NCBI GenBank assembly: GCA_964506465.1
Contig: CAZDLM010000028.1
Span: 1-32,000, forward strand
Source: an uncultured Syntrophaceae bacterium
Lineage (GTDB): Bacteria; Desulfobacterota; Syntrophia; Syntrophales; UBA6109
Direction of reading: 5' to 3'
DNA: 32,000 nt
A model generated the notes under the pieces. It made no database searches. It had not been told where the DNA came from and saw only the letters and a program-made list of their open reading frames with translations. Below, one piece after another: positions 3,440-31,864 of the stretch (positions within the stretch are counted from its first letter, which is position 1; the number at the start of each line of letters is the position of its first letter). The position numbers were made by a program, and so were the translations under genes.

Positions 3440-3454
3440 GGCATTTCCCCTCTT

Positions 3455-4300: not shown

Positions 4301-4452
4301 GCTCGACGAGGCGCGTTACCGAGGAGTGTCTTGGCGATGCCGACAACGATGGCCCGAGCCGGGAAGGAGGGGGGAAACGATAGCGAAACGACGGGAGGTT
4401 CCGCGGCCCCGCTTGTCCGGCGCCGCGAACGATGGATTTCAGAGACCTGTTA

Positions 4453-4800: not shown

Positions 4801-4807
4801 CCCGCGG

Positions 4808-5269: not shown

Positions 5270-5310
5270 AGGACTCTCCCTCCCCGCCCCCTCTTTTGCT
5301 TCTTCACCCC

Positions 5311-9864: not shown

Positions 9865-11400
9865 TTACTTTCCCGGGCACTCGGCCGCCTCCGGAGGCGG
9901 CGCGTTCCCGCGGAATTCGTCCAGGTCGGCAAAGCGGTTCATTCCTTCGAGGCGCCGCAGATACTGCTGATAGCGTGCCTGCCAACCGGCCCTGCGGATC
10001 CGCCGGTCGACGAAAAACTTCATGACGGGTTGGATGACGTAGGTCCAGAAGGAGGTCCACAGGCGGCCCTGCTGCACGGCGAAGGCCGAGGGTTTCCACC
10101 ACCCCAGGACCGTTTGCCGGTAATGCCAGAAGGCATATGCCAACTGATCGGCCTGAAGCCGCCGGGTCTTCACATTGGCCCAGAAGCCGTTGTACCGCTC
10201 AAAGCGGTCGGGATTCGTCACCAGGCCCTCGGCGAGCAGATTTTCCCGAAGCCGGGTCTTGGGATAGGGGGTGAGGATCTGGCAATACGCGGCGTCGATC
10301 TCCAGTTCATTGAGGAATCGGTAGTTCTCCTGGATGGCGGTATCATCGTCGTCGGGCAGCCCGAAGATGAGGCCCCCGATCACCATGATGCCGTGCCGGT
10401 GGCAGCTCAGGACGGCCTGCCGCGCCGCCTGGACCAGATCGCCCTTCTCCATGGCCGCGAGGTTCCGGCTGGAAGCGCTTTCAATCCCCAGAAACACCCC
10501 TCGGAATCCCGCCGCGGCCATCTTGGCCACCATCGCCTCATTGCGGGCCATGGAGATGCAGTCTGCCTGGACGATCAGCCGCAGGTTCCGGTATTTCCGG
10601 GCGATGATGGCGTCGCAGACGGCCGTGACCCACTGGGGGTTCAGCACCATGTTGTCATCGGTGATGAAGATGAGACGCGTCTTCCGGTTGAAGTAGATGT
10701 CGTCCAGGTCGGCGAGAATCCGTTCGATGGGATACGTCCGGTAGGAGCGCCCATACATGTGGTTGATGCTGCAGAAGTTGCAGCTTCGCGTGCAGCCCCG
10801 GGAGGTTTCCATGACCTCGATCCGGGAGTACATGAAGTGGTATCCGCGCGTCAGGCGCCGGCGGTCGCGCACCGGGAGCTTTAGCCGGGACAAATCGCAG
10901 AGTTCCCCCGTTTCGTTGTGGATCCATTCGTTCCCGCGCCTGTAGGAGAGCGACGGAACGGCCTCCAGGCTGTCGGTCCCCGCCAGGGCGTTGACCAGCC
11001 TCCGGAACGTCTCCTCCCCTTCGCCGCGGATGATGAAGTCCATCTCCTGCGCATCCGGGGATGTGGCGATCTCGCGGCTCATCAGGGTGGCATGATAGCC
11101 CCCGACGGCGATCTTCACTCCGGGCAGGAGACGCTTGATGAGCCGCATCACGGCCAGACACGTCGGGAACTGCCAGGTCATGGCCGACAGGCCGACCAGA
11201 TCGGGGCGGATCTTCTTGAGGGTCTTCGTCAGATAGGCGACGACGCCGCGGCGCTTGCGGACCAGATCGATCAGATGGACCTCATGCCCCTCATCGATGT
11301 TGCCGGCGACGCAGGCGATGCCGTGGTTGGGCATGTGGAGCGCCGTCTCATGGATCACGATCGGAATCACATCCGGCATCGAGATCAGGACCACCTTCAT
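9865..11400 (-). CDS. B12-binding-domain radical SAM enzyme (class B type)
   Basis: 511 aa. N-terminal Rossmann-like domain (MKVVLISMPDV..., DLVGLSAMT, KIAVGGYHAT) and CxxxCxxC in SRGCTRSCNFCS, followed by a long C-terminal extension. Confidence 0.85.
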   Translation of the reverse strand: MKVVLISMPDVIPIVIHETALHMPNHGIACVAGNIDEGHEVHLIDLVRKRRGVVAYLTKTLKKIRPDLVGLSAMTWQFPTCLAVMRLIKRLLPGVKIAVGGYHATLMSREIATSPDAQEMDFIIRGEGEETFRRLVNALAGTDSLEAVPSLSYRRGNEWIHNETGELCDLSRLKLPVRDRRRLTRGYHFMYSRIEVMETSRGCTRSCNFCSINHMYGRSYRTYPIERILADLDDIYFNRKTRLIFITDDNMVLNPQWVTAVCDAIIARKYRNLRLIVQADCISMARNEAMVAKMAAAGFRGVFLGIESASSRNLAAMEKGDLVQAARQAVLSCHRHGIMVIGGLIFGLPDDDDTAIQENYRFLNELEIDAAYCQILTPYPKTRLRENLLAEGLVTNPDRFERYNGFWANVKTRRLQADQLAYAFWHYRQTVLGWWKPSAFAVQQGRLWTSFWTYVIQPVMKFFVDRRIRRAGWQARYQQYLRRLEGMNRFADLDEFRGNAPPPEAAECPGK

Positions 11401-16917: not shown

Positions 16918-18345
16918 TCAGCCCTTCGGTTCAAACTGGCGCTTGGCGGACCAGAACGATGGCAGATGCCGGATCAGATAGGCGATGCTTTTCCGATGCT
17001 GCCAAAGACGGCTGCGGAACCTTTTCCGCCACCGGGGGTCGGAATAGAAACGCTTCACATGCTCGTTGTACAGAAAGTCCAGCCTTTCTTTGGATGAAAT
17101 GTCCTTCGAGACAAAAACAAAATTCAGGCAATTCATCAACGGCCAGTCTTCCTGAAACGTCCCTTCATCCCGGATCGTCGACCAGAGCGGCGCCCCGGGG
17201 AAAGGGGTGAACTTGGACATGTTCATGTCGTCGAGCCCAAGCGAAATGATGAAATCCGATGTTGTCCGGATCGACGCTTCCGTTTCGCCGGGCAGGCCCA
17301 TCATGAACAGACCCTTCGCCCGCAGACCCGCGGCCTGAATGCGCCGCACCGTGTCGCAAACCTCGTCCAGCGAGACGCCCGATTTATGCCTGGCCAGCAT
17401 CTGCGAATCCGCCGATTCGATGCCCAGAGAGACCATGAGACACCCGGCCTCCTTGAGCATCCGAAGCAGGTCATCGTCCGCATAACCCACCCGGACGGCG
17501 CAGTTGAAATGGATCCCCAGGGGATGCCGTGCGAGTCCTTCGCAGAGCTCGACGATGCGGCGGCGATCCGCCGTGAAGAGGTCGTCGTAAATGTTGATGT
17601 GCCGCACGCCGAACCGCGTCCGCAGGTGTTTCATGTGCTCATAGATGTAGGGAGCCGAGTTGCAGCGGAATCCCCTCCTGAAGACGGACCGGTCGCAATA
17701 GGAGCATTGAAACATGCAGCCCCGCGACGTGATCATGGTCGCCCCGGGGGTATGGACGTAGCTGAACAAAGGCAGGTGGTAATCCCGCGGGAAGCCCTGA
17801 AGCTTTTCATAGGCGGGGAACGGAAGCGAGTCCAGGTCGACGATCTGCGGACGGGGCGGATTGGTGATCGGCGCGGAATCGCGCCGCCGGATCAACCCCC
17901 TGATGTCCGCGGGATCCGCGCCGCCGGCAAGCTCCGCCATGGTGAGCTCACCCTCTCCGGCGCACAGAAAATCAAAGGCGGGGTACCCCTGCATCAGGCT
18001 ATCCTGCAATGCGGAAACGTGCACGCCTCCGCAGATGGTCCTGACCCGTGCCGCCCGTTTCTTGATTTCCTGCGCCATCTGCGCGGCATCGAGAAAAGAA
18101 GACGTCGTGGCCGAAAATCCGACCATGTCCGGCCCATATCCCAGAATCACCCGAACCTGCGCATCGACGTCGGCGGGGACGCCCGGGCCCAGGCAGTCGT
18201 AGACGAAGACCTCGTGCCCCTGCTGCAACAGGTACGCGGCGATCGAAAGGATCCCCTGGGGAACCATGCGATTAGCGACATCGGTGATGTCGCGCCGGCC
18301 GGGGAACCAGTTGAATCCCCGCGGATGAACCAGGACAATGCGCAT
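16918..18345 (-). CDS. B12-binding-domain radical SAM enzyme (class B type)
   Basis: 475 aa. N-terminal domain MRIVLVHPRG..., DMVGFSATT, ICGGVH. CxxxCxxC in SRGCMFQCSYCD. Confidence 0.85.
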   Translation of the reverse strand: MRIVLVHPRGFNWFPGRRDITDVANRMVPQGILSIAAYLLQQGHEVFVYDCLGPGVPADVDAQVRVILGYGPDMVGFSATTSSFLDAAQMAQEIKKRAARVRTICGGVHVSALQDSLMQGYPAFDFLCAGEGELTMAELAGGADPADIRGLIRRRDSAPITNPPRPQIVDLDSLPFPAYEKLQGFPRDYHLPLFSYVHTPGATMITSRGCMFQCSYCDRSVFRRGFRCNSAPYIYEHMKHLRTRFGVRHINIYDDLFTADRRRIVELCEGLARHPLGIHFNCAVRVGYADDDLLRMLKEAGCLMVSLGIESADSQMLARHKSGVSLDEVCDTVRRIQAAGLRAKGLFMMGLPGETEASIRTTSDFIISLGLDDMNMSKFTPFPGAPLWSTIRDEGTFQEDWPLMNCLNFVFVSKDISSKERLDFLYNEHVKRFYSDPRWRKRFRSRLWQHRKSIAYLIRHLPSFWSAKRQFEPKG

Positions 18346-18396: not shown

Positions 18397-18972
18397 TTAC
18401 GGCCGACGCTGCGCCTCCACCAGGGAGCGAATATTCTCCCTGTGGCTGAATACAATCAGCAGGACCGTCAGCGTAGTTCCCGCGAGGGGAACCGCGTGAG
18501 CGCCGCCCGCGGCGATGGTCACGGCCCCGAGGGTCGCAATCATGCAGAAGGAGGCGATGAAGGGAATGTGCACGACCTGCTGGACCGCGACCCAAAGGAT
18601 GCAGGAAGCAGCCGCCCCCCAGGGCGACAGCGCAAGGGTGAAGCCCAGATAGCCGGCAACGCCCTTGCCGCCCCGGAACCGGTGAAAGCAGGGGAAACGG
18701 TTCCCGGCGACCAGGGCGAGACCGACCCACGGGATCAGGTCGTCCCGGAGAAGGACCGCCGCCAGCAGCGCCAGGCAGGCGGCCCGTCCCACGTCGAGGA
18801 CGAGTACGACGGCCGCCCATCCCTTCCCGGCCTGACGGTAGACGTTGGTGGTCCCCGCATTCCCGCTGAATGTCGTCCGCGGATCCCCCTTGCCCAGAAG
18901 CCCGAGGAGAAGAATGGCAAAATTGACCGACGCCGCGAGATAGGTCAAGAAGAGAATACCGGTAAACCGCAT
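18397..18972 (-). CDS. plsY: PlsY-family glycerol-3-phosphate acyltransferase (divergent, cluster-embedded)
   Basis: 191 aa polytopic membrane protein with PlsY motifs FSGNAGTTNVYR, FPCFHRFRGGKGVA and SHRENIRSL. Confidence 0.8.
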   Translation of the reverse strand: MRFTGILFLTYLAASVNFAILLLGLLGKGDPRTTFSGNAGTTNVYRQAGKGWAAVVLVLDVGRAACLALLAAVLLRDDLIPWVGLALVAGNRFPCFHRFRGGKGVAGYLGFTLALSPWGAAASCILWVAVQQVVHIPFIASFCMIATLGAVTIAAGGAHAVPLAGTTLTVLLIVFSHRENIRSLVEAQRRP

Positions 18973-18976: not shown

Positions 18977-19840
18977 CTAAGTCTCCCGAGGCTTTCTCAC
19001 CCAGGCGGGGGGCGTCCGCCTCCCGCCGGAGATGTCCCGCATCTCGAGCCCCTGGATGATCTCCGCGTCCCCGCCGTCGCGATCCCGGAGCCATACGTTG
19101 AAACGCAGCACCGGGGCCTCTCCCGGCAGAGGGACGATGCGGCAGTCATAGGTTCCGCCGGCCCGGGTCGGGGCGAGGATCCTTCTTCGCCTGAAGCCCA
19201 CGGGGAAGGCGACCGTGTTCCTGTACCGCTGCGCCCAGGCGCAGGCGATATGAAAGGCCGCATCGGCGGGGAACGGGGACCCCAACGGCCCGGCCGGCTC
19301 GGGCGCTTCCCCCCCGGAGACCTCGGCCCAGGCCGCGGTTTCCGTCAGGCTGACGTCGCCCGCCACGTTCTGATAGGCCGGTCCGAAGGGAACCAATTCC
19401 TCGTAGAGAAGGCGGCACGGCAGCGTGAAGACCGGCTCCGTCCCGGCCGCGGACGGCGTCTCCATCCGGTCCGTCTCTTCCCCGGCGGGCAGAAAGAAGA
19501 CCGACGCATGCTCGACCCGGCGCGTCCATTTCGCCTGCCGTCCCGAGCGGACGGTCAGCAGCCTGGAAATGCAGCTTCCGTCCGCGAAACGCGAAATCTC
19601 ATGGACGGCCGGGATCTCGCGCAGGCCCGGTTCGACGATCAGAAGGTGGCTGAACGCGCCCGCTTCCTGCCGGTGAGGATCGGCGGAAACGGACGCGGGC
19701 AGCGTGGCGGCCAGGACCTGCAGGGCCTCTACGGCGGGAAGAACCACGCGGCCGGAAACGCGGTGGTCGTGCAGATACGCGGGCACGGGCACCGCCACGG
19801 GAACGTCTATCGTTTCGACGGGCTGGGAAAGGTTTTCCAT
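18977..19840 (-). CDS. Free-standing PKS-type (double-hotdog) dehydratase
   Basis: 287 aa from ATG 19840 (MENLSQPVE...). HxxxGxxxxP in LHDHRVSGRVVLPAVEAL and DxxxH in PADAAFHIA. The track ORF extends to 20221 across the thioesterase gene. Confidence 0.75.
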   Translation of the reverse strand: MENLSQPVETIDVPVAVPVPAYLHDHRVSGRVVLPAVEALQVLAATLPASVSADPHRQEAGAFSHLLIVEPGLREIPAVHEISRFADGSCISRLLTVRSGRQAKWTRRVEHASVFFLPAGEETDRMETPSAAGTEPVFTLPCRLLYEELVPFGPAYQNVAGDVSLTETAAWAEVSGGEAPEPAGPLGSPFPADAAFHIACAWAQRYRNTVAFPVGFRRRRILAPTRAGGTYDCRIVPLPGEAPVLRFNVWLRDRDGGDAEIIQGLEMRDISGGRRTPPAWVRKPRET

Positions 19841-20298
19841 AACTGAACGGTCTTGGGATCGACGGCCACGGGAATCCCCCTGGAATTGAGGGCGCAATGC
19901 CGGGTGTAGCCCCGGCAGACATCGGCCCCCGTCTCCGCGTGGGTGATGACGTAATCGAACTGGAGACGGACACGCTGGAGCTCCGCCGGCCGCGTGTGGA
20001 TCCACATGGGATCGTCGTAGTGCAGCGGCTGGTGGAACTGGATCGCCAGGTCGATGATGGGGTAGACGTAGCCGCTGTCCTCGATCTCCCGATAGGGGTA
20101 GGCGGCGTCGCGCATCAGCGACGTCCGGCCGAATTCGAAATACCGCAGATAATTGGCGTGATACACGACGGTGGAGCGGTCCGTATCGGCGTAAAGGGTC
20201 CTCATCCTGCACCGGTGCCATATCAGTCCCGTCGCAGCTTCACGGACGTAACGATCGTCCTCTCCCTGAGGTTCGGTCCGAAACGGCCTGGGCTTCAT
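19807..20298 (-). CDS. 4HBT/YbgC-type acyl thioesterase
   Basis: 163 aa from ATG 20298 (ATGA overlap with the KS stop). Active-site segment YADTDRSTVVYHANYLRYFE. The 3' end overlaps the DH start by 34 nt. Confidence 0.8.
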   Translation of the reverse strand: MKPRPFRTEPQGEDDRYVREAATGLIWHRCRMRTLYADTDRSTVVYHANYLRYFEFGRTSLMRDAAYPYREIEDSGYVYPIIDLAIQFHQPLHYDDPMWIHTRPAELQRVRLQFDYVITHAETGADVCRGYTRHCALNSRGIPVAVDPKTVQLWKTFPSPSKR

Positions 20299-21566
20299 GG
20301 CGCCACCCCCCGGAATATGATGCAGCAGTTTGTGCCGCCGAAGCCGAAGGCGTTCGACAGGGCCATCTCGCATCGGTGCGGACGGGCCGTGTTCGGCACG
20401 CAGTCGATGTCTGCAAAATGCGGATCGGGGATATGGTTGATCGTGGGCAGGATCACCCCCCGCTGCATGCCCTCGATCGTGAGGGCGTCTTCGATGGCCG
20501 CCGCCGCCCCGAGGGTATGGCCGATCTGGGACTTGTTCGAGGACAGGGGGATCTTCTCCAGGGACCGGCCGAAGACCGTCCGGAGGCACTCGACCTCGAC
20601 GAGGTCTCCTTTCGGCGTGGAGGTGCCGTGGGCGTTGATGTACTGGATGTCCGAAGGCTGCAGGGCCGCGTCGTGGAGCGCCTCCCGGATGCCCCGGATG
20701 ATCGTTTCGGGATTGGGCTTGGTGAAATGGTAGGCATCGGAGGTCCAGCCGACCCCCATCACCTCCGCCCGCGCCTGAAGGCCGTACCGCGCCAGCATCT
20801 CCTCGGCGGCGAGGACGACGACGCCGGCCCCTTCGGAAACGACGAAACCACGCCGATCCACGCTGAAAGGCCGCGAGGCCTGCCCGGGATTCTCGTACGC
20901 CCGGTCTCCGGGGACCACCTTGACGGTGGCGTTCATATTGGCGAAGCCGTGGATGATCTCCGGAAGGATCGGGGTATCTACCCCGCCGGCCAGGACGAAA
21001 TCGCAGTCCCCGTCACGGATCATGCGGGACCCGATGCCGATCGCGTGGTTCCCCGAGGCGCAGGCCCCCTGGGGAGAAAAGACGGGTCCCGTGAAACCGA
21101 GCAGCATCCCCGCCTTTCCCGAAGGAAGATTGGCGCAGAGATTGGGCAGGAGGTAGGGGCTGATCTTCAGGGCGCCCTTTTCCTGGAAACGGAGCATGGC
21201 GGTCCGGAAGGAATCCACGCCATTGATCGCCGAACCGATGAGGCAGGCCGTCCGGGGACCGGTTTCCCCGTCCATCGGCAGACGGGCGTTCGCCAGGGCT
21301 TCGCGGCAGACGGCCATGGTGAGGATGACGAAAGCGGCGTCCCAGTTGTACACTTCCTTGGCATCGACGAACTCGAGCGCCAGAGGGTCCCAGTCCGGGA
21401 TCTCCCCAACCACGTTGCAGGGCGAATCGACCTGGCAGCGGGTGACTTTCCGGAAACCGGCCTCGCCGCGGACGGCCCTTTCCCACGTCTCGGGAAATGT
21501 CCGCCCCAGCGGGGTGGCCGCTCCGTAACCGATGACGAAAACGCGTCTGTTCTGTGGCGCCCTCAT
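20295..21566 (-). CDS. Beta-ketoacyl-ACP synthase (KS, intact Cys-His-His)
   Basis: 423 aa from ATG 21566 (MRAPQNRRVFVIGYGAATPLG). PQGACASGNHAIG (Cys), NAHGTSTPKGD (His), SQIGHTLGAAA (His). The 39 upstream in-frame codons in the track have visibly lower third-position GC and are judged non-coding. Confidence 0.85.
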   Translation of the reverse strand: MRAPQNRRVFVIGYGAATPLGRTFPETWERAVRGEAGFRKVTRCQVDSPCNVVGEIPDWDPLALEFVDAKEVYNWDAAFVILTMAVCREALANARLPMDGETGPRTACLIGSAINGVDSFRTAMLRFQEKGALKISPYLLPNLCANLPSGKAGMLLGFTGPVFSPQGACASGNHAIGIGSRMIRDGDCDFVLAGGVDTPILPEIIHGFANMNATVKVVPGDRAYENPGQASRPFSVDRRGFVVSEGAGVVVLAAEEMLARYGLQARAEVMGVGWTSDAYHFTKPNPETIIRGIREALHDAALQPSDIQYINAHGTSTPKGDLVEVECLRTVFGRSLEKIPLSSNKSQIGHTLGAAAAIEDALTIEGMQRGVILPTINHIPDPHFADIDCVPNTARPHRCEMALSNAFGFGGTNCCIIFRGVAP

Positions 21567-21721
21567 GCCGGAATCAACCCATCCTTCACGATGCTGAAAT
21601 ACCGGTCTCCCGACGACGGGAAAACCGCAAAAACCCTCGCCCTGACCGGTGCCGGAATCTTTCCAAAGGTGGGAAATCGTCACCGGGACGCGTGCAGGGA
21701 AGGATTGTCAGGGTCCTCATA

Positions 21722-22975
21722 TCAGGCAACACGGCGAAACACAAGGCAGGCGTTGCAGCCCCCGAAACCGAAGGCATTCTTCAGGACATGCTCCTGCGTC
21801 AGGCGCCGGGCGCCTTCGGCGACGCAGTCAAGATCGATCGCCGGATCGCGCCGGTAGTTGATCGTGGGCAGCAGAACGCCCCGCCGCATCCCTTCCAGGG
21901 TCAGGATCGATTCCACGGCGCTCGTGGCCCCCATGGCATGTCCCAACTGCGACTTGTTGGCCGAGACGGGAGGGATCCTTTCTCCGAAGATCTCCCGGAG
22001 GGCCTCGGCCTCGACCTGATCGCCCACCTTGGTCGAGGCGGCGTGGGCATTGATTGCATCGATGTCCGCCGGTGCAATGCCGGCGTGGACGATGCTTTGG
22101 GCCATGCAGCGCGTCACCGTAACGGGATTGGGGGCTACCACGTGACAGGCGTCGGCGTTCATCGCCCAGCCGGCCAGCTCAGCGTCGAAGGCAAGACCGT
22201 GGGCCGCGGCAAAGGCCCGTGAAGCGATCACGATGCAGCCCGCCCCCTCGGAAACGACGAATCCACGGCGCCCGAGAGAAAAGGGCCGGCTCGCCACGCC
22301 GGGCGGCAGGGGCGCTTCCCCCTCCTTGGGGCGGTAGGCGCCGTTCATCGTGGCAAAACCCGCCACGATCGGCTCGATCAGGGGAAAGTCCGCGGCGCCG
22401 CAGATGGCCACGTCGGCCATCCCCTGGGCGATGAACATCGCCCCCAGGATCAGCGAACTGCTCCCCGTGGCGCAGGCGGTGACCACCGAGGCAATGGGCC
22501 CGGTCGCCCCGGTCAGGATGGCCACCTTGCCTCCCACCATGTTGATGCAGGAATTGGGATTCATGAAGGGCTGCGGCAGCTTCCCGGCCGCCGTCCAGCT
22601 CCGGTCCGCCGCGATGAGCGCATCCAGCCCGCCGATGGCGGAGCTGAAGGTGACGGCGACCCGCGGGGCCAGGTCCGGCGTGATCTCCAAGCCGGCCTTC
22701 TTCAGCGCCCTGTGGACGACGAGCAGGGCGTGCGGGAAAATCGGGGAGGTCCAGTGGGCCATCTCGCGGGGTTGCAGAAACGGATAGGGGGCGACGTCGA
22801 TGGGGTCGACCTGGCCGGCGATCCGGACGGGAAAGCCTTCTTTCAGGGGGAAGCGGGTCAGGCCCGATACGCCGCTTTCGCCCGCGGCGGCCCGGCCCCA
22901 CTGATCTTCCAGCTCGGCGCCGAGGGGCGAGACGGCATCATATCCCAGGATCACGGGTCGAGTGTCGTTCATCAT
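21722..22975 (-). CDS. Beta-ketoacyl-ACP synthase (KS, intact Cys-His-His)
   Basis: 417 aa with VVTACATGSSSLILG (Cys), NAHAASTKVGD (His) and SQLGHAMGATS (His). Confidence 0.9.
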   Translation of the reverse strand: MMNDTRPVILGYDAVSPLGAELEDQWGRAAAGESGVSGLTRFPLKEGFPVRIAGQVDPIDVAPYPFLQPREMAHWTSPIFPHALLVVHRALKKAGLEITPDLAPRVAVTFSSAIGGLDALIAADRSWTAAGKLPQPFMNPNSCINMVGGKVAILTGATGPIASVVTACATGSSSLILGAMFIAQGMADVAICGAADFPLIEPIVAGFATMNGAYRPKEGEAPLPPGVASRPFSLGRRGFVVSEGAGCIVIASRAFAAAHGLAFDAELAGWAMNADACHVVAPNPVTVTRCMAQSIVHAGIAPADIDAINAHAASTKVGDQVEAEALREIFGERIPPVSANKSQLGHAMGATSAVESILTLEGMRRGVLLPTINYRRDPAIDLDCVAEGARRLTQEHVLKNAFGFGGCNACLVFRRVA

Positions 22976-23006: not shown

Positions 23007-24005
23007 TCACCAAGGGATGAACTTGTAGAGCTTGGCGAACATCTCGTACACTTCGATCCAGTTCTGGAGGTCCTTCGTGGAGCGCAGGTGGTCCCTCTTG
23101 TTGACCATGACCCAGCTCATGTGGGCGGCACCGTCCTTACAAGTCCGGCAGTCCCGTGTCGCCGAAGTGCAGCAGCGGTGCATCGTCTCGAGGTCCGCCG
23201 CCCAGCGGATAAAGCGGATGAGGCGCTTCGGACGGGGATTGCGGTTGTCGAGGGGCTCCGTCACGGAGGGGCATTCCTCCCACCCGAAAGACCGCCCCAG
23301 CATCCGTCCGGTGGTGATGACTTCATGGTAGTACCGGCAGGAAACCACCGTCCGCGGGTAGCGATCGAGCATGGCGTCCATCTCGGCGCGGACATCGGCG
23401 AGCTGCGAGGGGCTCCAGGAGAACCCGTCGACGCCTTCATCATTGGAGAGCAGTTGCATGTGGACCTTCAGGCCCACGGCGTCGATCCTGCCGATCACCC
23501 GCTCCAGCCGCCCCAACTGCCGGGGGGTGATGGTGTACAGATAGTAGGTGAAGGGGTCGCCTTCATAATTGCGGCTGGACACGGCAAAGGTGTCCCTCCC
23601 CCGCAGGAGCTTTTCGTCCTCTTCGTCCCCCCACAGGGAGATCCCCACCATCATGTCGGGAAATCTATCGCGCGGCACCTTGATCAGCCCGTTGGTGGCA
23701 CAGTAGGTGGAAAGGCGCCGGTAGAAGGCCTCGACGCGGTCGAAATGGAGGGTCGGCTCGCCCCCGATGAGAATGGCCAGATTGACCCCCCGGGCCTGTT
23801 CCTTTTCCACAAAAGCGTTCCAGCGGGCGGCGTCCATTTCCTCCCGCGCCGCCTTGTGCTCATCGGACGAGAAGAAGAAGCACCCCTTGCAGCGGAGGTT
23901 GCAGCAGTTCGTCACGTCGTAGATGGAGCTGCGCATGTTCAGGCGCGAAATCGCCTTGTAACGCTCGTACCAAGCGGGATCCAGGAGTGAACTGACGGTC
24001 TGCAT
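23007..24005 (-). CDS. Radical SAM enzyme with C-terminal Cys cluster (paralogue B)
   Basis: 332 aa from ATG 24005 (SD AGAGAGGAA; alternative ATG 24029). CxxxCxxC in YDVTNCCNLRCKGCFFF and C-terminal CCTSATRDCRTC. Confidence 0.8.
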   Translation of the reverse strand: MQTVSSLLDPAWYERYKAISRLNMRSSIYDVTNCCNLRCKGCFFFSSDEHKAAREEMDAARWNAFVEKEQARGVNLAILIGGEPTLHFDRVEAFYRRLSTYCATNGLIKVPRDRFPDMMVGISLWGDEEDEKLLRGRDTFAVSSRNYEGDPFTYYLYTITPRQLGRLERVIGRIDAVGLKVHMQLLSNDEGVDGFSWSPSQLADVRAEMDAMLDRYPRTVVSCRYYHEVITTGRMLGRSFGWEECPSVTEPLDNRNPRPKRLIRFIRWAADLETMHRCCTSATRDCRTCKDGAAHMSWVMVNKRDHLRSTKDLQNWIEVYEMFAKLYKFIPW

Positions 24006-24007
24006 CG

Positions 24008-25168
24008 TTACGGATTCCTCTCTTTGCATCCCGGCGGAGCCACCATCTCTGCGCAGAGATTCTCCCCCTTGTCATATCCCATGACCCAGACGGCCAGATA
24101 GGTATCGACATAGTCCAGCCAGGACTTGAAGGAGGGCGGATCCGCCACGTGGCGATACAGCCGGGCGGTCACCACGGCGCTTCCCGCCGCGTAATGCCGG
24201 CAGTCGGCGCAATCGGTGTCCGGCACGCAGCAGGCCGCTTCCCGGTCCCAGGTGAGGTCCGTCCTGAACTGGCGGAAGGAGCGTCCCAGACCGATCGCCG
24301 TAGAGGCGTTTCTCCGGGGATAGGAACAGTCGTAGAGGTCGTGCAGGCCCTTCTCCTGCGTATGGGCGACGACGTTGTAGGGAGAAAAGAGGACGTGCCG
24401 GGGATAGCGGGACATCATCTCCAGCATGACCTCCCGTGTCCGGACCAGGGAGGCCGCGTCGTGGCGCAGGCCCCCTGCGTAGCCCACGGGCGCAGAGAAG
24501 ACATTGAAGGTGACGCGGCAGTCCGCCGCGGCCAGGAGGCCCATGACTTCCGCCGCCTCATCGATGTTTTCCCGCGTAAAGGTATAGACGAAGACGGCCC
24601 GCGGATCGCCGCGGTAGTTGTCGACCTGCCGGCGAAGCAACTCCCGGGCCTTGCGCACGCGCCGGCTGGTTTCGTCGTTTCCCCAGACGGAGATGTGAAT
24701 CCGGTAACCGACCGCCGGATCGATGCGGCGAAACCCGTTCGTCGCGATGCAGCCCAGCGGCATCTCCGCGAAGCAGACATCGAGAAGATCGGGAACGAGC
24801 GAGGGTTCAGCCCCCGCCAGGACGACATACGTGATGCCGCGGCTGCGTTCCCGCCGCAATAGCTCGCGCCAGGCCTGAGGATCGCCGTTTTCCCGCGCAA
24901 ATTGTTTGTCGCCCTCGTAATAATAACAGCCGTCGCAACGGAGGTTGCAGCGGTTCGTCATGTCATAGGTGGACTCTCTCAGGAAGAAGTACTGCCGAAC
25001 CCGCTCCCAGCGGGCTTTGACGGCCGGCTCCGACAACAGCTCGGAAAACTTCCACCGCCGCGACGGCGAATCTTCCGGCACGGGCCCGCGCCTCAAGGCG
25101 GCCTCGTCGTACCCTGCCGTTCGCTCTCCGGTTTCCTGATTCAGCATCGCTTCGGCCTTCTGCGTCAT
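24008..25168 (-). CDS. Radical SAM enzyme with C-terminal Cys cluster (paralogue A)
   Basis: 386 aa. CxxxCxxC in YDMTNRCNLRCDGCYYY and C-terminal CCVPDTDCADC. Confidence 0.85.
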   Translation of the reverse strand: MTQKAEAMLNQETGERTAGYDEAALRRGPVPEDSPSRRWKFSELLSEPAVKARWERVRQYFFLRESTYDMTNRCNLRCDGCYYYEGDKQFARENGDPQAWRELLRRERSRGITYVVLAGAEPSLVPDLLDVCFAEMPLGCIATNGFRRIDPAVGYRIHISVWGNDETSRRVRKARELLRRQVDNYRGDPRAVFVYTFTRENIDEAAEVMGLLAAADCRVTFNVFSAPVGYAGGLRHDAASLVRTREVMLEMMSRYPRHVLFSPYNVVAHTQEKGLHDLYDCSYPRRNASTAIGLGRSFRQFRTDLTWDREAACCVPDTDCADCRHYAAGSAVVTARLYRHVADPPSFKSWLDYVDTYLAVWVMGYDKGENLCAEMVAPPGCKERNP

Positions 25169-25223: not shown

Positions 25224-25505
25224 TCACGGTTTCCTGCCGGAAGCCGCCTGTTTGGAACACAGATACTTGGCGATCAGCCGGACGGTCCTCAGGGTCGGAT
25301 AGTCGTCCTCATCGATTGCGACGCCGTATTCATCCTGAAGAACCAGGGCGACCGTTGCCAGATCCATACTGTCCACGCCGAGTTCGTCCACCAGATCCAT
25401 ATCGGGATCGAAGGTCTCCGGCGTGATGTCCTGCAGTTTCAACTCCCCGATGACGATCTCGGCGATCCGGAGGATCTGTTCGCGGTCTTCATTGCACTCC
25501 GGCAT
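25224..25505 (-). CDS. Acyl carrier protein (cluster ACP 1)
   Basis: 93 aa with the Ser motif in ELGVDSMDLATVAL. GGAGG SD 7 nt upstream of the ATG. Confidence 0.85.
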   Translation of the reverse strand: MPECNEDREQILRIAEIVIGELKLQDITPETFDPDMDLVDELGVDSMDLATVALVLQDEYGVAIDEDDYPTLRTVRLIAKYLCSKQAASGRKP

Positions 25506-25561: not shown

Positions 25562-25972
25562 CTAAAAACACTGCTCTTTGTCAAGCGATTTGTGCCGCGG
25601 ACTGACGACCGGTTCGGCGGTAAAAGCCCCCGTACAGGCCGGTTCGCCGGCTATTGCGACGCTGAAGAGATAGGTCCATCCGTCCCGCCCCTCCCGCCTG
25701 GATATCTTCAGCGTCAGTTCCTCATCCGGCCTGACCGGAAGGCGAAAACGGACCCTCCCGAGACCGGTAATCCTCATCGACCTTCCCTCCCCGCGTTCCG
25801 CCGCAAGGATCGCCTCTTCCACCAGCGCCAGGATGGCGATTCCCGGAAGCAGCGGGGCGCCGGGGAAATGGCCGTCGTACCACGCCGAATCCGCTGAAAC
25901 GCTTGCCGAAGCCGCTATGCGGTCCGCCGTACCCGAACGGCGCGACAACGCCTGATGGAACGTCTTCTTCAT
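25562..25972 (-). CDS. FabZ-like (3R)-hydroxyacyl-ACP dehydratase (single hotdog)
   Basis: 136 aa. YDGHFPGAPLLPGIAILALVEE matches the FabZ His/Glu active-site segment (HFPxxPxxPG). Confidence 0.8.
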   Translation of the reverse strand: MKKTFHQALSRRSGTADRIAASASVSADSAWYDGHFPGAPLLPGIAILALVEEAILAAERGEGRSMRITGLGRVRFRLPVRPDEELTLKISRREGRDGWTYLFSVAIAGEPACTGAFTAEPVVSPRHKSLDKEQCF

Positions 25973-26832
25973 TTGTCCTCCGGACCTTTCCTGATTTCGG
26001 GAACAGCGCCGGACCGCGGAAGGGTTGCCGGTTCCATCACCGGCCTGCCGGTCAACTGCGACAGCGGCACGACCTCATACCCCTTCGACTTCAGCCCCAG
26101 GACGATCTGCTCCATCTCCTCCATCCAGTCTGCGATCCCGCCGTCGCCGGACGGCGTGACGTCGTGGAGAAGGACGACGGCCCCGGGGCGGACCCTCGAA
26201 AGGATGCCTTTGGCCAAGCCCCGGATGCGGCGGTTCCCGAAATCGCCGGCCCGGCAGCTGAAGGTGATGCAGTCCATGTCCAGCGTCCTGAGCACCCCCC
26301 GCAGTCTCGGATTGGTGATGCCCACGGGCGGCCGGAAAGCGCGGGGCAGGATGCCGAAACCGGACAGCAGTTCCTGGGCGCGGGTGATCTCATCGCAGAG
26401 TCTCGCGCGGGAACGCAGCATCAACAGAGGGTCATGATGGTAGGAGTGATTGCCGATGGCGTGCCCCCGCGACAGGATCTCCCGGATCAACGCCGGATGC
26501 CGTTTCGCCTCGACCCCCACCACAAAGAAAGTCGCCGGCAGCCGATGCCGATCCAGGAGGTCGAGCAGACCGGGCGTGACTTCCGGATCGGGGCCGTCGT
26601 CGAACGTCAGGGACACCGCCCGGCGGTCTCCCGCTCCGCGGCTGATCACCGGCAGGAAGAAACCCGCCCGGGGCAGAAAGGGGGCGGCCAGGCAGGAGAG
26701 AACAAACAGGCCGAGGGGGACGGCGGCCATTTCCGCACGCACGAACATCAGGCCCCCGGAGAGGAGCATCGATGCAGCGCCCGCGATATGGGCCGGCGAC
26801 GGATTCCTTCCAGCGGTCGACGCCTTGTTCAT
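25969..26832 (-). CDS. NodB-homology (polysaccharide deacetylase family) protein, membrane anchored
   Basis: 287 aa from ATG 26832 (ATGA overlap with the upstream stop; alternative ATG 26850). Two N-terminal hydrophobic helices. NodB motifs LTFDDGPD and GNHSYHH. Confidence 0.8.
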   Translation of the reverse strand: MNKASTAGRNPSPAHIAGAASMLLSGGLMFVRAEMAAVPLGLFVLSCLAAPFLPRAGFFLPVISRGAGDRRAVSLTFDDGPDPEVTPGLLDLLDRHRLPATFFVVGVEAKRHPALIREILSRGHAIGNHSYHHDPLLMLRSRARLCDEITRAQELLSGFGILPRAFRPPVGITNPRLRGVLRTLDMDCITFSCRAGDFGNRRIRGLAKGILSRVRPGAVVLLHDVTPSGDGGIADWMEEMEQIVLGLKSKGYEVVPLSQLTGRPVMEPATLPRSGAVPEIRKGPEDK

Positions 26833-28178
26833 CTCAGCAACAGCTCCCACAGCGGACCGGAATGACCGCGGGCGTACATCCGGGCCACGGCGCGTTCCGT
26901 CTGAGCGCTGCCGTCCCCATAAATCCAGTTCAGGCGGCCCCGGGCTTGCCGCTTCACGCGCTCCCTGATCTCATCCTTCGCAATTCCCTTGGAGCGATAA
27001 AAGATCGGGGTCAGAAGATCCTGATCCGGTGCGATCTGTCCCTCCTCCAGCGAGAGTTGATAAAGCGGGGTCTGGGGGAAGATCCGTACGCCACAGAAGA
27101 GGAAGAACACCGCCTTTCCCAGCGCCTCCATGCCGGCCAGCGTCTCTTCCAGGGTCTGTGCGTCCTCTCCGGGCCCGCCCAGCAGAAAGTAGTGGGCGAT
27201 GTGGATCCCTGCCCCCCGGGCGCTCGCGTGGGCGGCGAAGACGTCCCCCGCTTGAAATGGTTTCTGGTAGCGCCTCAACTGCGCGTTGCACAGAGATTCC
27301 GTTCCGAATTCGGCGTGCGTCATTCCGGCGTCGGCCAGGGCGCTGTAATAACCCTCGGCCGGACGCCGCGGGGCCAGAAAAGCCCCCCAGGGAATGCCGA
27401 GCCGTTCGCGCCGGAAGGCCTCGGCGACGGCAAGGCTGTGGTCCTCGTCGGCGTTGAAGACCGAGTCCGTGATGAAAAGAAACCGGGCGCCCAGTTCCTC
27501 CAGTTCCCGCGCCTGCCGGGCGACCTCTTCCGGGGGGAAGAACCGGAATTTGCGCCCCTCGATCAGGGGGAAGGAGCAATAAAAACAGCGGAACGGACAA
27601 CCCCGCTTCGTCTGAAGGTTCATGATCCCTCCGCGATCGAGGTAGAAGCGAAGCCCGGCTTCGCCGGGCGCCGTCCGCCGCGCCACTTTTCCGGTCCAGG
27701 GTACGGGGCACCCGACGGGTCCGCCGCGCGTTACGATCCCGGGCAGGACGGCGGGGTCCGTGCGTTCTTCGAGGGCGGCGAGCAGCAGCGACATGGCCTC
27801 CCCCTCCCCGACCACGCCGAAATCGGCATCCAGCCGGGACATGAACTCGCGGGGAAAGATGGAAAAGCCGCTGCCGCCGAGAACGATGGGGGCCTGCGTG
27901 CGCGCCCTGATGAACCGTGCAAGCGCCTCATAACCCGGAATGAAGCTCTTCGTATCGAGGGTATCTTCGTTGTCGATATTCCGGATGGAGATTCCGATGA
28001 CGTCCGGACGATCGACTCTCAGGGAGTCTTCCAGACGATCCTGAGCCCCGGCAACGTTCATGTCCAGGATTCGCACCTCATGACGGGGCGTCAGGGCCTG
28101 CATGACATAATCGAGCCCGAGCGGATAAACCGGGTGCGGGGTCGTGACCGTGTTGGCCGAAATGAGCAGCACCTTCAT
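26829..28178 (-). CDS. B12-binding-domain radical SAM enzyme (lipid-cluster type)
   Basis: 449 aa. N-terminal domain MKVLLISANTVTTPHPVYPLGLDYV, VIGISIRN, VLGGSGFS. CxxxCxxC in TKRGCPFRCFYCS. Confidence 0.85.
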   Translation of the reverse strand: MKVLLISANTVTTPHPVYPLGLDYVMQALTPRHEVRILDMNVAGAQDRLEDSLRVDRPDVIGISIRNIDNEDTLDTKSFIPGYEALARFIRARTQAPIVLGGSGFSIFPREFMSRLDADFGVVGEGEAMSLLLAALEERTDPAVLPGIVTRGGPVGCPVPWTGKVARRTAPGEAGLRFYLDRGGIMNLQTKRGCPFRCFYCSFPLIEGRKFRFFPPEEVARQARELEELGARFLFITDSVFNADEDHSLAVAEAFRRERLGIPWGAFLAPRRPAEGYYSALADAGMTHAEFGTESLCNAQLRRYQKPFQAGDVFAAHASARGAGIHIAHYFLLGGPGEDAQTLEETLAGMEALGKAVFFLFCGVRIFPQTPLYQLSLEEGQIAPDQDLLTPIFYRSKGIAKDEIRERVKRQARGRLNWIYGDGSAQTERAVARMYARGHSGPLWELLLR

Positions 28179-28927: not shown

Positions 28928-29533
28928 ATGAATATGAAAAGATGCGCGTCTCTGGCGGCAGGTTTTGCGCTGTGCCTCTTTCTGACTTCCTGCAGTTCGA
29001 CAACCGATGCCGTAAAAGTCCCTCTGAACCATTACTCTCCAAATTTGAAGTCGGACCTGAGCAAATACAAGGGAAAACCGATCTATCTGATGAACTTCGA
29101 CAATCAGGCCAAAAATACCACCAACTTTTACTATTTGAGCCTTGACCGGAAATTTGCCTATCACGGAGACTCCCTCATCCACAACTATTTCTGGTATTCC
29201 TTCGACAAGGCCCTGAAGAATCTCGGCATGGTCGTCTCCAACCCGAATCGGCCGGATGCCGTTGCGCCGGGCGTGTGGCTGACCCTGAAATCGATCACCG
29301 ACGCCCGCTACGTGGTGGAGGTAAAGATCCAGACGCGATGGGAGCCGTTCTTCACGAAGACCTACGAGGTCGCGGGAGATGCCTCCGTCGGTGACGGAAA
29401 GACGCCGGCCGAACTGGAAAAGAGGGCCTACCTCATGACCAACCGGCTCATCGAGGGCATCTTGACCGACGTGGAATTTCAGAACGCCTTTTTCAAGGCC
29501 GTCAAGGAGATGGCATCGACGAAAGGCACCTGA
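28928..29533 (+). CDS. Lipoprotein (hypothetical)
   Basis: 201 aa with signal peptide plus lipobox MNMKRCASLAAGFALCLFLTSC. Strong SD. No recognisable catalytic motif. Confidence 0.75.
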   Translation: MNMKRCASLAAGFALCLFLTSCSSTTDAVKVPLNHYSPNLKSDLSKYKGKPIYLMNFDNQAKNTTNFYYLSLDRKFAYHGDSLIHNYFWYSFDKALKNLGMVVSNPNRPDAVAPGVWLTLKSITDARYVVEVKIQTRWEPFFTKTYEVAGDASVGDGKTPAELEKRAYLMTNRLIEGILTDVEFQNAFFKAVKEMASTKGT

Positions 29534-29544: not shown

Positions 29545-30987
29545 ATGACCGGGACCCCTGACATGCCGGCAGCGGAAATGACGATGTACGAAACGATTGC
29601 GGCCCTTCTGGAGAAAGAGGCCTCCCCTTTCGTCCCTTCCGGGCCGACCATAGGGGAAATCGCCGCGTTGGCCGCCGGATTCCGGGATTTCTTCGCCCGT
29701 TCGAGAACGCCCGCCGATGAGCCGGTTTGCCTGTGCGTCGAGAACCGGTCGCACCTGCTGGCGGCCGTGCTCGCCTCTCTGGCGGGCGCCCCGCCTTTCA
29801 TCCTCCCGCATGCCTGTCACCCGCAGGTTCTCAAAGAGGCGCAGGGAGAGAGGCCCTTCCGGATGATCCTCGCCGACGTCGCCGTGGAGGCGCCGAAGGG
29901 GGCGGCCGTCATCGATATCGCGGCATGCCGTCCGGGCCATGGACCCCTGAAGCTTACCCGCCCTCCGAAGCAGCCCCTCGTCTTTCTCTTCACGGGGGGC
30001 TCCACCGGAAAACCACGGCTCTGGTCCAAGACCCCCGAAAATCTGTTCGGCGAGGCCTTCCACCTGGCCGGATCCCTCGGCATCGGTCCGGCCGACCTCA
30101 TCCTCTCCACCGTCGGCCCCCAGCATATCTACGGTCTGCTCGGCTCCGTTCTTCTCCCCTTCATCGCATCGGCGCAGGTCATCGGGCGAACCTGCACGTT
30201 TCCCCGGGAGATCCTCGGCGCACTCCGCAGAGACAGTGCCACGATCCTGGTCAGCGTCCCCGCCCATTACCGGGCACTCAGGGCCACGGATCTCACCCGC
30301 CATGCCCTGAGGATCGCACTCTCCTCCGCAGCCCCGCTGGATCCCGAAGACGCCGCCGCCTTCCTGGACAAGACGGGACTGGCGATCCGGGAAATCTACG
30401 GGTCGACGGAAACCGGAGGGATGGGAATGCGGACGTCCGGCGAAAATCACGGATCCTGGAAGCCCTTCACCTGTCTGGACTGGAAGATCCTCGCGGACCG
30501 GCTCTGCGTGCGTTCGCCTTTCGTCTCCCCGGATCTCCCGCGCGACGAGGCCGGTTTTTTCACGACGGCGGATCGCGCCGCCGCGGACGATGGAAACCGC
30601 TTCCGCGTCCTGGGGCGTGCGGATCGCATCGTCAAGATTGCCGGCAAGCGGGTCGATCTGGAGGAGATCCGGGAGAAGATCCGGCGGATCCCCGGCGTGA
30701 CGGACGCCCACGTAACGACGGTTCCCCTGAAGGGGGCCAGGCAGATGGAAATCGTGGCCCTTGTGGCCAGCGATCAGCCCGCCCGTCAGGTCAGGGCCGC
30801 CGTCCGGTCCCTGGACGATCCTTACGGCCGTCCGCGCCGGATTCGCATCGTCAGGGCCGTTCCCGTCCTTCCGAACGGCAAGGTCGACCGGCATCGCATC
30901 GAGAAGCTCTTCGCCGCACCCCATCGCCCGAAGGCGGCCGAGGGCCTCACGGACCGCGTCCCTCCTTCCCCTCCCCCGTATCCCTGA
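29545..30987 (+). CDS. Adenylate-forming enzyme (AMP-dependent synthetase/ligase, short APE-cluster-like form)
   Basis: 480 aa with FLFTGGSTGKPRLW (P-loop-type AMP motif), EIYGSTETGG, and TADRAA...GRADRIVKIAGKRVDLEEI. Confidence 0.85.
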   Translation: MTGTPDMPAAEMTMYETIAALLEKEASPFVPSGPTIGEIAALAAGFRDFFARSRTPADEPVCLCVENRSHLLAAVLASLAGAPPFILPHACHPQVLKEAQGERPFRMILADVAVEAPKGAAVIDIAACRPGHGPLKLTRPPKQPLVFLFTGGSTGKPRLWSKTPENLFGEAFHLAGSLGIGPADLILSTVGPQHIYGLLGSVLLPFIASAQVIGRTCTFPREILGALRRDSATILVSVPAHYRALRATDLTRHALRIALSSAAPLDPEDAAAFLDKTGLAIREIYGSTETGGMGMRTSGENHGSWKPFTCLDWKILADRLCVRSPFVSPDLPRDEAGFFTTADRAAADDGNRFRVLGRADRIVKIAGKRVDLEEIREKIRRIPGVTDAHVTTVPLKGARQMEIVALVASDQPARQVRAAVRSLDDPYGRPRRIRIVRAVPVLPNGKVDRHRIEKLFAAPHRPKAAEGLTDRVPPSPPPYP

Positions 30988-31864
30988 GAAAAGTCTCGAA
31001 GTGATACCACTCGTCGGGATGCGCGCGGGCCGTTTCGGCGAGCAGATCCGCATACGTCTGGGCCGCCGTCTCGACGGCCCTGCGGCGTTCGGCGCGCGAG
31101 GCGACGGCGACGAAGACGGGCGGCTTTGCGACGACGTGGTAACGCCCTCGTCCCGTGCGATGGCCGAAGAAGATCAGGAGCGGCGCCCCGGAGATGCTCG
31201 CCAGGATATAGGGAATTTCCGGGAGCCGGGCCTCGCCGCCGGCGAACCGAACGGTGACGGACCGCTGGTCCTGAGCCCATAACCGGTCCCCCGTGAGGGA
31301 AACTAGCCCGCCGCTCCGCAGGAAATCCAGGCCTTCCAGGATGTCGATCGCCGACGCCGCTTCCTCCGGAGCCGAGACGACGCGGATCCCGTTTGCCTTC
31401 ACGGTCCGTTTCTGACGCCCCTCGATCTGCTCCCGGCGCTTCTCCCCGAGATAGAGCAGCAGCCTGATCCGCGGGTCCCCCTCGCCCATGCGCATGAGGA
31501 GCTGTGCGGCGATTTCCCAGCCGCCCACGTGCGACATGAGGATGATTCCGCCCCGGCCGCCGTGGGCGGCGGCAACGATATGTTCCCATCCCTCGCAGGT
31601 GAACGGAAGCCCGCCGTCTTCCGCCAGGCGGAACCGGTCCAGGAAGACGTGGACGAAGGAGTGATATTGCCGCCAGGTGCGCAACAGAGCGTGCAGCCGC
31701 GGCCTTTCCGGGAAGAGACGGCGGTAGAACCGGACGCTGACGGCGACGCGGCGGGGGCAAAGAAGGAAGTAGCCCGTCGCCACGTGCCAGGCGATCAGCA
31801 GGAAGATCCAGTCTCCGAACGTCCTCGCCAGGGCCATGAGACAGCGGTAGAAGAGATCCTTCAC
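30947..31864 (-). CDS. LpxL/HtrB-type (lipid A biosynthesis-like) acyltransferase family protein
   Basis: 305 aa from GTG 31864 (GTGA overlap with the upstream stop). N-terminal TM segment. H(X)4E in ILMSHVGGWEIA, as in the LpxL HFMSLE segment (from memory). Overall layout of this family. Confidence 0.7.
   Translation of the reverse strand: MKDLFYRCLMALARTFGDWIFLLIAWHVATGYFLLCPRRVAVSVRFYRRLFPERPRLHALLRTWRQYHSFVHVFLDRFRLAEDGGLPFTCEGWEHIVAAAHGGRGGIILMSHVGGWEIAAQLLMRMGEGDPRIRLLLYLGEKRREQIEGRQKRTVKANGIRVVSAPEEAASAIDILEGLDFLRSGGLVSLTGDRLWAQDQRSVTVRFAGGEARLPEIPYILASISGAPLLIFFGHRTGRGRYHVVAKPPVFVAVASRAERRRAVETAAQTYADLLAETARAHPDEWYHFETFLRDTGEGKEGRGP

Follow-up and report, generated by a model that had tools for sequence, protein, structure and literature searches.

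Introduction

Radical S-adenosylmethionine (SAM) chemistry has hardly been explored on fatty-acyl and polyketide chains. The only radical SAM modifiers of ketoacyl lipids named in a 2026 review are Jaw5 and the ladderane enzymes, the latter still hypothetical, and Jaw5/C10P provides the only characterised radical SAM modification of a thiotemplate-bound polyketide or fatty chain (PMC13459092). Here we describe two adjacent radical SAM genes, rSAM-A and rSAM-B (hereafter A and B), in a lipid gene cluster of an uncultured Syntrophaceae bacterium of the Syntrophales. The cluster is encoded on a 32,000-nt stretch of contig CAZDLM010000028.1 (assembly GCA_964506465.1, positions 1 to 32,000), which is referred to as the window; the pair lies on its minus strand. 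A and B are paralogues that belong to no described or curated radical SAM subfamily. We place a probability of about 0.5 on the two being complete, separately active members of a radical SAM family linked to carrier proteins.

The enzymes most similar to the pair are found among the twitch/SPASM group of radical SAM proteins. The best profile and fold matches of A and B are SkfB (6efn), SuiB (5v1s), CteB (5why), anSMEcpe (4k36, 4k37) and BlsE (7vob). The likeness consists of an N-terminal CxxxCxxC motif, a partial TIM barrel and a Cys-rich C-terminal extension, and makes an extra Fe-S cluster in A and B plausible. In contrast to that group, A and B carry the cysteine pattern C-x31-CC-x5/6-C-x2-C rather than the SPASM pattern CX2CX5CX3C and have S-x-W-G in place of the ‘SxDG’ strand motif, and the partner is an acyl carrier protein (ACP) and ketosynthase (KS) system, not a peptide or sugar.

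Other systems are closer in biochemical setting. Jaw5 is a cyclopropanase that acts on a chain bound to a polyketide synthase (PKS) and, together with C10P, exemplifies a radical SAM enzyme working in step with chain extension. These are HemN-like single enzymes that use SAM as a methylene donor, whereas A and B form a paralogous pair without a HemN match. LipA combines a carrier-tethered acyl substrate, an auxiliary [4Fe-4S] cluster and two successive radical steps, but its similarity to A and B is at the superfamily level, its Cys motifs are different, and one enzyme performs both steps. The best analogy for two consecutive related reactions would be GrsA/GrsB, the archaeal glycerol dialkyl glycerol tetraether ring synthases. 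These are two paralogous radical SAM proteins that carry out related, successive C-C ring closures at different positions of a lipid chain (cited in PMC11868695). They differ from A and B in acting on finished isoprenoid tetraethers and in being encoded by genes that are not adjacent.

The gene cluster itself has described relatives. So-called ladderane-type clusters were first compared between Kuenenia and Desulfotalea (PMC2649909) and are widespread in non-anammox anaerobes (PMC2649909, PMC9902471). They are reported by antiSMASH in many such organisms, with products unknown (PMC4489286, PMC9902471). In Kuenenia, kuste3342 and kuste3343 are adjacent genes annotated as ‘SAM radical’ (PMC2649909, PMC4790861).

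A radical SAM pair outside the curated subfamilies

The gene for A (24008-25168, minus strand; 386 amino acids) is supported by an open reading frame (ORF), a match to the radical SAM model PF04055 and an AlphaFold2 model. B (23007-24005, minus strand; 332 amino acids) is a member of the same radical SAM family. PF04055 is matched over the N-terminal part only, with 32.8 bits for A and 32.0 bits for B against a cutoff of 29.5. The two proteins align over 327 residues with 27% identity and 45% positives (BLASTP, E=2e-34). An initial annotation, made from the DNA letters alone, had proposed that they correspond motif for motif, and every motif it quoted is paired in this alignment: STYDMTNRCNLRCDGCYYY with SIYDVTNCCNLRCKGCFFF, ATNG with ATNG, VWGNDE with LWGDEE, NYRGDP with NYEGDP, RYPR with RYPR, and CCVPDTDCADC with CCTSATRDCRTC. 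It had also stated that neither protein has a B12 domain, in agreement with the Pfam search, in which PF02310 (B12-binding) was matched by neither A nor B.

The junction between the genes had been described as either a 2-nt gap or a 22-nt overlap, and both arrangements can be read. Two bases (‘CG’) separate the stop codon of A (TAA, 24008-24010) from an ATG at 24005, upstream of which stands the Shine-Dalgarno-like sequence GAGAGG. If counted from a second candidate start, the upstream ATG at 24029, the open frame of B spans 23007-24029 and overlaps A by 22 nt. As 118 of the 120 closest B homologues are exactly 332 amino acids long, ATG 24005 is taken as the real start, which leaves the 2-nt gap. 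The conserved part of A begins near residue 35, and its true start could be slightly downstream of the annotated one.

Both genes are under strong purifying selection. There are more than 2000 homologues of A with 70-95% identity, the top 120 homologues of each protein give a mean column conservation of 0.78 (A) or 0.83 (B), and neither sequence has lost any of the cluster motifs. The possibility that one copy is degenerate, raised in the initial annotation, can therefore be set aside.

The radical SAM family to which A and B belong is small and clearly bounded: when 1.84 billion representatives at 50% identity were searched exhaustively, only 493 clusters reached E≤0.001. No Pfam or NCBIfam family model covers this family. 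For A and B, no NCBIfam score exceeds 29.5 bits, where the cutoffs are 131-725 bits. The matches span about 60-90 N-terminal residues, with the exception of a weak, longer match to TIGR03961 (17.6-21.7 bits; cutoff 306). Above-cutoff NCBIfam matches were absent for HemN-like proteins (the type of Jaw5/C10P), HpnH, BioB/LipA, MoaA, viperin and Tes. The earlier statement that the pair cannot be placed among HemN-, HpnH- or BioB/LipA-like enzymes is borne out by these scores. Likewise, the NCBIfam search gave no match of A or B to TIGR04072, a model for B12-binding radical SAM proteins, and both lack an N-terminal B12-binding domain. A literature search found no characterised family member and no Syntrophales lipid product.

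Family members share a signature drawn from three alignments of diverse members (25, 61 and 68 sequences, A and B included), in which its columns vary little or not at all. It comprises CxxxCxGC (C74, C78, G80 and C81 in A), G-x-E-P, T-N-G, S-x-W-G, an invariant Arg (R172 in A), N-Y-x-x-D and the C-terminal C...C(C)-x5-6-C-x2-C. The motif expected to bind the SAM cluster reads CNLRCDGC in A (24926-24949, minus strand; C74, C78 and C81, with the family-invariant G80) and CNLRCKGC in B (23880-23903, minus strand; C35, C39 and C42). Its cysteines are 100% conserved within the clade of each protein and 98-100% conserved across the family, and A and B each retain SAM-binding motifs as well. A neighbour-joining tree resolves three deep clades. 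The A-like clade holds A of the window, A' of a second locus (L086, see below), P0249 and others; the B-like clade holds B of the window, B' of L086 and the P0354, P0381 and P0371 groups; the third, a diverse clade, is designated C-type.

Retention of the pair beside a carrier protein and ketosynthases

To place the pair in a genomic context, one genome per GTDB species was scanned with the A-clade alignment as query, which located at least 548 places with a relative of A. The counts below refer to the best 80 of these, analyzed by tblastn with all cluster proteins of the window, and are given as loci with the feature over loci with enough sequence to contain it (for B, at least 1.1 kb beyond A). 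These 80 loci belong to Syntrophales, Smithella, ‘Deltaproteobacteria’ and a few metagenome-assembled genomes labelled Spirochaetes or Leptospirales.

The gene neighborhood is strongly conserved. B lies directly downstream of A in 69/69 loci and is found in 74 of the 80, with the remaining six ending no more than 460 nt from A. ACP1 lies directly upstream of A in 75/76 loci. Downstream follow KS1 (65/66), KS2 (59/61) and a 4HBT-type thioesterase (56/57), after which a PS-DH-like dehydratase and PlsY are usually encoded (most loci). The conserved core order is thus ACP1-A-B-KS1-KS2-thioesterase-dehydratase-PlsY. In the window, ACP1 (25224-25505, minus strand) is a protein of 93 amino acids with a PF00550 match and a DSM phosphopantetheine site, and is the presumed substrate carrier. 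KS1 (21722-22975, minus strand) and KS2 (20295-21683, minus strand) are FabF-like ketosynthases with intact Cys-His-His triads; the probable start of KS2 is Met40 at 21566, because homologue alignments begin there. The placement of the pair between an ACP and a KS pair, as originally annotated, is accordingly correct, and the check it had called for across genomes finds both the pair and these neighbors retained in these loci. Low-identity matches to B were considered as signs of decay and rejected: one is a divergent full-length copy (L044) and the other a frameshifted assembly (L030), not pseudogenes. The fragmentation of B in L030 is attributed to assembly error since KS1 and KS2 are frameshifted in the same way.

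A second, very different cluster also carries a pair. In L086, the order is KS-KS-A'-B'-ACP-KS-MaoC-FabH; A' shares 47% identity with A and 28% with B, while B' shares 35% with B and 27% with A. Since this pair is so divergent, the A/B duplication predates the split of the cluster types, and the combination of A and B has therefore been retained at least twice. An ancient duplication kept as a pair had been suggested at the outset, and the separate deep clades, the invariable adjacency and the L086 pair all speak for it.

Beyond these two cluster types, family members occur singly within the 8-10 kb inspected on either side. Among B-like singletons, that of L081 (Blastocatellia) is translationally coupled to an AMP-ligase, followed by an ACP; that of L088 is coupled to a protein with fatty-acyl-AMP ligase (FAAL), ACP and KS parts plus a free ACP, in surroundings with PKS and CMAS-type methyltransferase genes; and that of L089 has a PKS a few kb away. 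A-like singletons form a large clade with members in Pyrinomonadaceae, Thermoanaerobaculia, Polyangiaceae and the isolate Reinekea marinisedimentorum. They are arranged as KS-ACP-rSAM in L092 and L093 and as rSAM-ACP, with a lone carrier protein directly adjoining, in L083 (10001-11255) and L091 (10001-11285). One metagenomic protein, P0377 (724 amino acids), fuses a TubC-like docking segment and an alpha/beta-hydrolase thioesterase (GWSMGG) to a B-like domain, which links the family to thiotemplate assembly lines. Overall, a carrier protein is encoded within two genes of the family member in 7/10 diverse loci. These associations suggest that enzymes of the A-like and B-like clades act on substrates tethered to carrier proteins.

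The settings of L083 and L091 are polysaccharide or capsule-type loci with genes for glycosyltransferases, sulfotransferases, WcbI and epimerases, which is unexpected for an ACP with a radical SAM protein. One of the two closely matches cultured Reinekea marinisedimentorum.

These data bear on whether A and B function together. The initial annotation had offered two possibilities, a heteromeric enzyme or two consecutive related reactions. The alternative that fares best against our reading is an obligate A-B heterodimer that performs one reaction with two radical sites, for example tail-to-tail or mid-chain coupling of two acyl chains, one activated by each subunit. It would account well for the strict adjacency of the genes, which are often separated by only a few nucleotides, for the joint recurrence of both members in the divergent L086 cluster, and for the glycerolipid acyltransferases encoded in the window. 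However, the single relatives beside carrier proteins imply that neither type requires the other, and so make an obligate heteromer less likely. No A-B fusion is present among the listed representatives, in which the long proteins are the P0377 thioesterase fusion and P0387, with a frameshifted-looking tail. The spacing between A and B varies from -29 to +185 nt in 72 loci, and two loci have a gene inserted between them. In addition, the two KS genes downstream suggest that the chain is still under extension when the pair acts. We consider an obligate heterodimer unlikely, though the best of the alternatives. Of the two original possibilities, the singletons argue against the obligate heteromer and slightly favor two autonomous, related reactions.

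The inserted gene in the two loci (L039, 11167-11763; L074, 11188-11763) encodes a lipoprotein homologue with 27-30% identity to a Pfam-less lipoprotein of the window (28928-29533, plus strand), which suggests that the lipoprotein belongs to the A/B system.

A putative auxiliary iron-sulfur site

Both proteins carry a second set of conserved cysteines near the C-terminus, which forms a putative auxiliary Fe-S site. In A it reads C281...C313-C314-x5-C320-x2-C323 (24200-24328, minus strand) and in B C245...C278-C279-x6-C286-x2-C289 (23139-23273, minus strand). None of the five positions varies among 120 homologues of the A clade or, for the set in B, among 120 of the B clade. C313, C320 and C323 (A numbering) are invariant or nearly so throughout the family, and about 71% of members have the second cysteine of the ‘CC’ pair.

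The AlphaFold2 models have mean predicted local distance difference test (pLDDT) scores of 89 for A and 92 for B. A is predicted to adopt the partial TIM-barrel radical SAM fold, and short strands followed by helices are predicted after the core; four to five conserved Cys are present. In the twitch subfamily, which includes BtrN, MoaA, SkfB and BlsE, a single auxiliary cluster is bound by 3-4 Cys on a short C-terminal beta-hairpin/helix extension. Foldseek identified SuiB, SkfB, BlsE and anSMEcpe as the Protein Data Bank (PDB) fold neighbors of A, and CteB and anSMEcpe as those of B. The best of these have E-values of 1e-7 to 1e-9 and a probability of 1.00, with template modelling (TM) scores of about 0.45-0.5 and 14-20% identity. 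Lower-ranked neighbors include viperins, DesII, MoaA, EpeE and HydE, with LipA/LIAS among the weaker matches. The best sequence-profile match in the PDB is also SkfB (E=9e-18, core only). The structural alignments to SkfB and BlsE run past the core (289-340 columns). A and B therefore sit in the SPASM/twitch neighborhood of the radical SAM superfamily. By analogy with twitch/SPASM enzymes, the C-terminal cysteines may bind an auxiliary [4Fe-4S] cluster.

Several observations weigh against this reading. PF13186 (SPASM) is matched by 0/68 family members at E≤1, and the seven-Cys SPASM pattern (CX9-15GX4C...CX2CX5CX3C...C) is replaced by C-x31/32-CC-x5/6-C-x2-C. A TM score near 0.5 in these models denotes superfamily-level similarity only. 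The C-terminal region is the weakest part of the A model, with pLDDT below 50 at residues 285-293. The initial annotation had proposed an auxiliary Fe-S cluster and suggested SPASM/twitch-type models as a check. The cluster is consistent with the conserved cysteines and with the nearest structures; the match to a SPASM model did not materialize.

One alternative is that the auxiliary cluster is sacrificial or binds the substrate, such that A and B insert sulfur or another group as LipA, BioB and AbmM do. The second PDB sequence-profile match is AbmM (8wm2, E=3.5e-7), and the weaker LipA/LIAS fold matches point in the same direction. LipA acts on an octanoyl chain held on a carrier domain and makes two successive insertions. 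Nevertheless, the matches do not extend beyond the generic SAM-binding core, the family models of LipA and BioB give no match, and neither protein has the N-terminal CX4CX5C motif of LipA. Sulfur insertion is hence improbable, more so than the heterodimer. Less probable again is that A and B are maturases of ACP1 itself or of a small unannotated peptide. The top fold matches (SuiB, SkfB, CteB, anSME) all count as enzymes that modify peptides or proteins, and the constant neighbor ACP1 is a small protein. In contrast, A and B have no RiPP recognition element (RRE) or SPASM domain, the module contains no conserved precursor-like ORF, and the relatives associate with FAAL, KS and thioesterase components of thiotemplate machinery. 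We regard a maturase function as very unlikely.

Predicted role of the pair

Returning to separately active enzymes on carrier-bound substrates, A and B probably use radical chemistry without oxygen to modify a fatty chain as it grows. In our estimation, an overall scheme in which ACP-directed enzymes with auxiliary clusters perform two related steps is about as likely to be right as wrong. Any one specific chemistry is doubtful, being at most about as plausible as the heterodimer. By analogy, an oxidative C-H functionalization of the ACP1-bound chain is favored, because the nearest structural neighbors carry out oxidative cross-links and dehydrogenations.

In the proposed mechanism, the substrate would be an acyl chain held on ACP1. 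In each enzyme, a 5'-deoxyadenosyl radical would take a hydrogen from an unactivated acyl carbon and the auxiliary cluster would accept the second electron. The net result would be an O2-independent two-electron oxidation, leading to C-C ring closure or cross-linking, or to desaturation. The two enzymes would work at different positions of the chain or one after the other, possibly in association. KS1 and KS2 would then extend the modified chain, the 4HBT thioesterase would free the product, and PlsY/PlsC would place it in a membrane glycerolipid.

Three points count against this proposal. The preference for oxidative chemistry is an analogy only, and auxiliary clusters elsewhere also serve as sulfur donors, as in LipA and BioB, or as substrate anchors, as in MoaA. 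Gene order alone does not separate an ACP1-bound chain from a finished lipid or from the ACP itself as the target. In addition, the association with carrier proteins is not family-wide, as the C-type members L085 and L090 have no carrier protein nearby.

The surrounding lipid gene cluster

The pair is part of a cluster of about 26 kb (approximately 5.8-31.9 kb of the window), mostly on the minus strand. Its genes encode, in order, an LpxL-like acyltransferase, an AMP-ligase (plus strand), the lipoprotein (plus strand), a B12-binding radical SAM protein (B12-rSAM 1), a polysaccharide-deacetylase-like protein, an ApeI-like dehydratase and ACP1; then A, B, KS1, KS2, the thioesterase, the PS-DH-like dehydratase, PlsY, B12-rSAM 2 and MipA; and finally an ApeP-like dehydratase, an acyl-CoA dehydrogenase, ACP2, a phytoene-desaturase-like oxidase, PlsC, B12-rSAM 3, KS3, KS4 and KS5. 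In total there are three B12-rSAMs, five ketosynthases and two ACPs.

Downstream of the pair, the 4HBT-type thioesterase (19807-20298, minus strand; PF13279, PF03061) probably starts at ATG 20298, with a 2-nt overlap with the KS2 stop. The PS-DH-like dehydratase (18977-19900, minus strand) has a weak PF14765 match and an uncertain exact start; a 414-residue ORF at 18977-20221 is probably just this gene of about 300 codons. PlsY (18397-18972, minus strand; PF02660, E=7.6e-35), a glycerol-3-phosphate acyltransferase, is the likely exit to membrane lipid. Upstream of ACP1 are the ApeI/FabA-like dehydratase (25562-25972, minus strand; PF07977, PF22818), the polysaccharide-deacetylase-family protein (25969-26850, minus strand; PF01522) and B12-rSAM 1 (26829-28178, minus strand). 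The other two, B12-rSAM 2 (16918-18345) and B12-rSAM 3 (9865-11400), are of unassigned subfamily; their best NCBIfam matches are HpnJ and BchE, both sub-threshold. The AMP-ligase (29545-30987, plus strand) and LpxL-like (30947-31864, minus strand) genes are convergent, and the 3' ends of their ORFs overlap by about 41 nt. The region at 357-5644 is unrelated to the lipid cluster and encodes a metallo-beta-lactamase-fold protein, a tungsten-type aldehyde:ferredoxin oxidoreductase, a 4Fe-4S ferredoxin, a GntR/FCD regulator and a YHS-domain protein.

The Cys-His-His triad is kept in KS1 to KS4, whereas KS5 (5776-6990, minus strand) lacks the catalytic Cys and both His, with Q, A and E in their place. 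KS5 may be a chain-length-factor-like partner of KS4. The anammox amxFabF-mut/amxFabF2 heterodimer resembles this proposed pairing (bioRxiv 10.64898/2026.05.19.726425). KS1 and KS2 were also considered as a ketosynthase and chain-length-factor pair, which is ruled out since both keep the triad.

The cluster is of the ladderane-type kind, because B12-rSAM 1 passes the TIGR04072 model (‘rSAM_ladder_B12’, lipid biosynthesis) with 390.9 bits against a cutoff of 360. Syntrophales are not, to our knowledge, known as ladderane makers. The window shares with ladderane-type clusters this B12-rSAM, several FabF paralogues including the triad-less KS5, dedicated ACPs, FabZ/ApeI-like dehydratases, a phytoene-desaturase-like oxidase, a polysaccharide-deacetylase-like gene and an AMP-ligase. 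It is the same kind of cluster as the Kuenenia ladderane candidates (kuste3335-3352 and kuste3603-3608; antiSMASH ‘ladderane’ class). ACPs, FabFs, a phytoene-desaturase-like gene, a polysaccharide deacetylase and an AMP-ligase are common to the window and kuste3335-3352 (PMC2649909, PMC4790861), with the deacetylase annotation carried by kuste3351 (PMC2649909, PMC4790861). In contrast, the A/B pair is without a described counterpart in the Kuenenia clusters.

The adjacent Kuenenia genes were compared with the window through their first 128 residues (the N-terminal third), translated from about 386 nt of each synthetic gene (S2 Table of PMC4790861). Over this part, kuste3342 is a B12-binding radical SAM protein that matches TIGR04072 and shares 43% identity with B12-rSAM 1 (E=7e-31), which by sequence is its counterpart. 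The N-terminus of kuste3343 reads ...FTKKCNLRCLYC...GGGEPLL... and scores 77.6 bits to NirJ2-type SPASM models vs 32 bits to the A/B family profile; its cluster motif, CNLRCLYC, is without the invariant Gly of CxxxCxGC. Despite the similar gene content and the TIGR04072 match in the cluster, the proposal that A and B are the Syntrophales orthologues of kuste3342/kuste3343 and of Desulfotalea DP1853/DP1855, and hence known candidate ladderane machinery, was rejected as extremely improbable, since over these N-terminal thirds kuste3342 matches B12-rSAM 1 rather than A or B and kuste3343 is a canonical SPASM-like protein. As both Kuenenia proteins differ from A and B, the pair has no described counterpart in the ladderane literature. 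The anammox radical SAM proteins and A/B are different enzymes, and transfer of annotation between them is unwarranted.

Significance

Radical SAM chemistry itself is well known; what is new here is an uncurated radical SAM subfamily with its own C-terminal Cys domain, a link to carrier proteins and an anciently duplicated pair. The family is compact, and in two of its three clades it is associated with carrier proteins and ketosynthases in several phyla. In species-representative genomes, the Syntrophales pair is central to a large lipid cluster at 548 or more places. ACP1-A-B-KS1-KS2 constitutes a small, concrete module for reconstitution, and A and B bear on the products of ‘ladderane-type’ clusters in non-anammox anaerobes. 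A bolder and rather unlikely extension is that the A/B family represents a lipid-tailoring class that forges C-C bonds, as rings or cross-links, on ACP-attached acyl chains. If this were true, the Syntrophales pair would install two modifications, and hundreds of species of strict anaerobes would contain a carbocyclic or bridged membrane lipid not described before. Such a lipid would be the real output of many of the ‘ladderane’ biosynthetic gene clusters called in non-anammox organisms.

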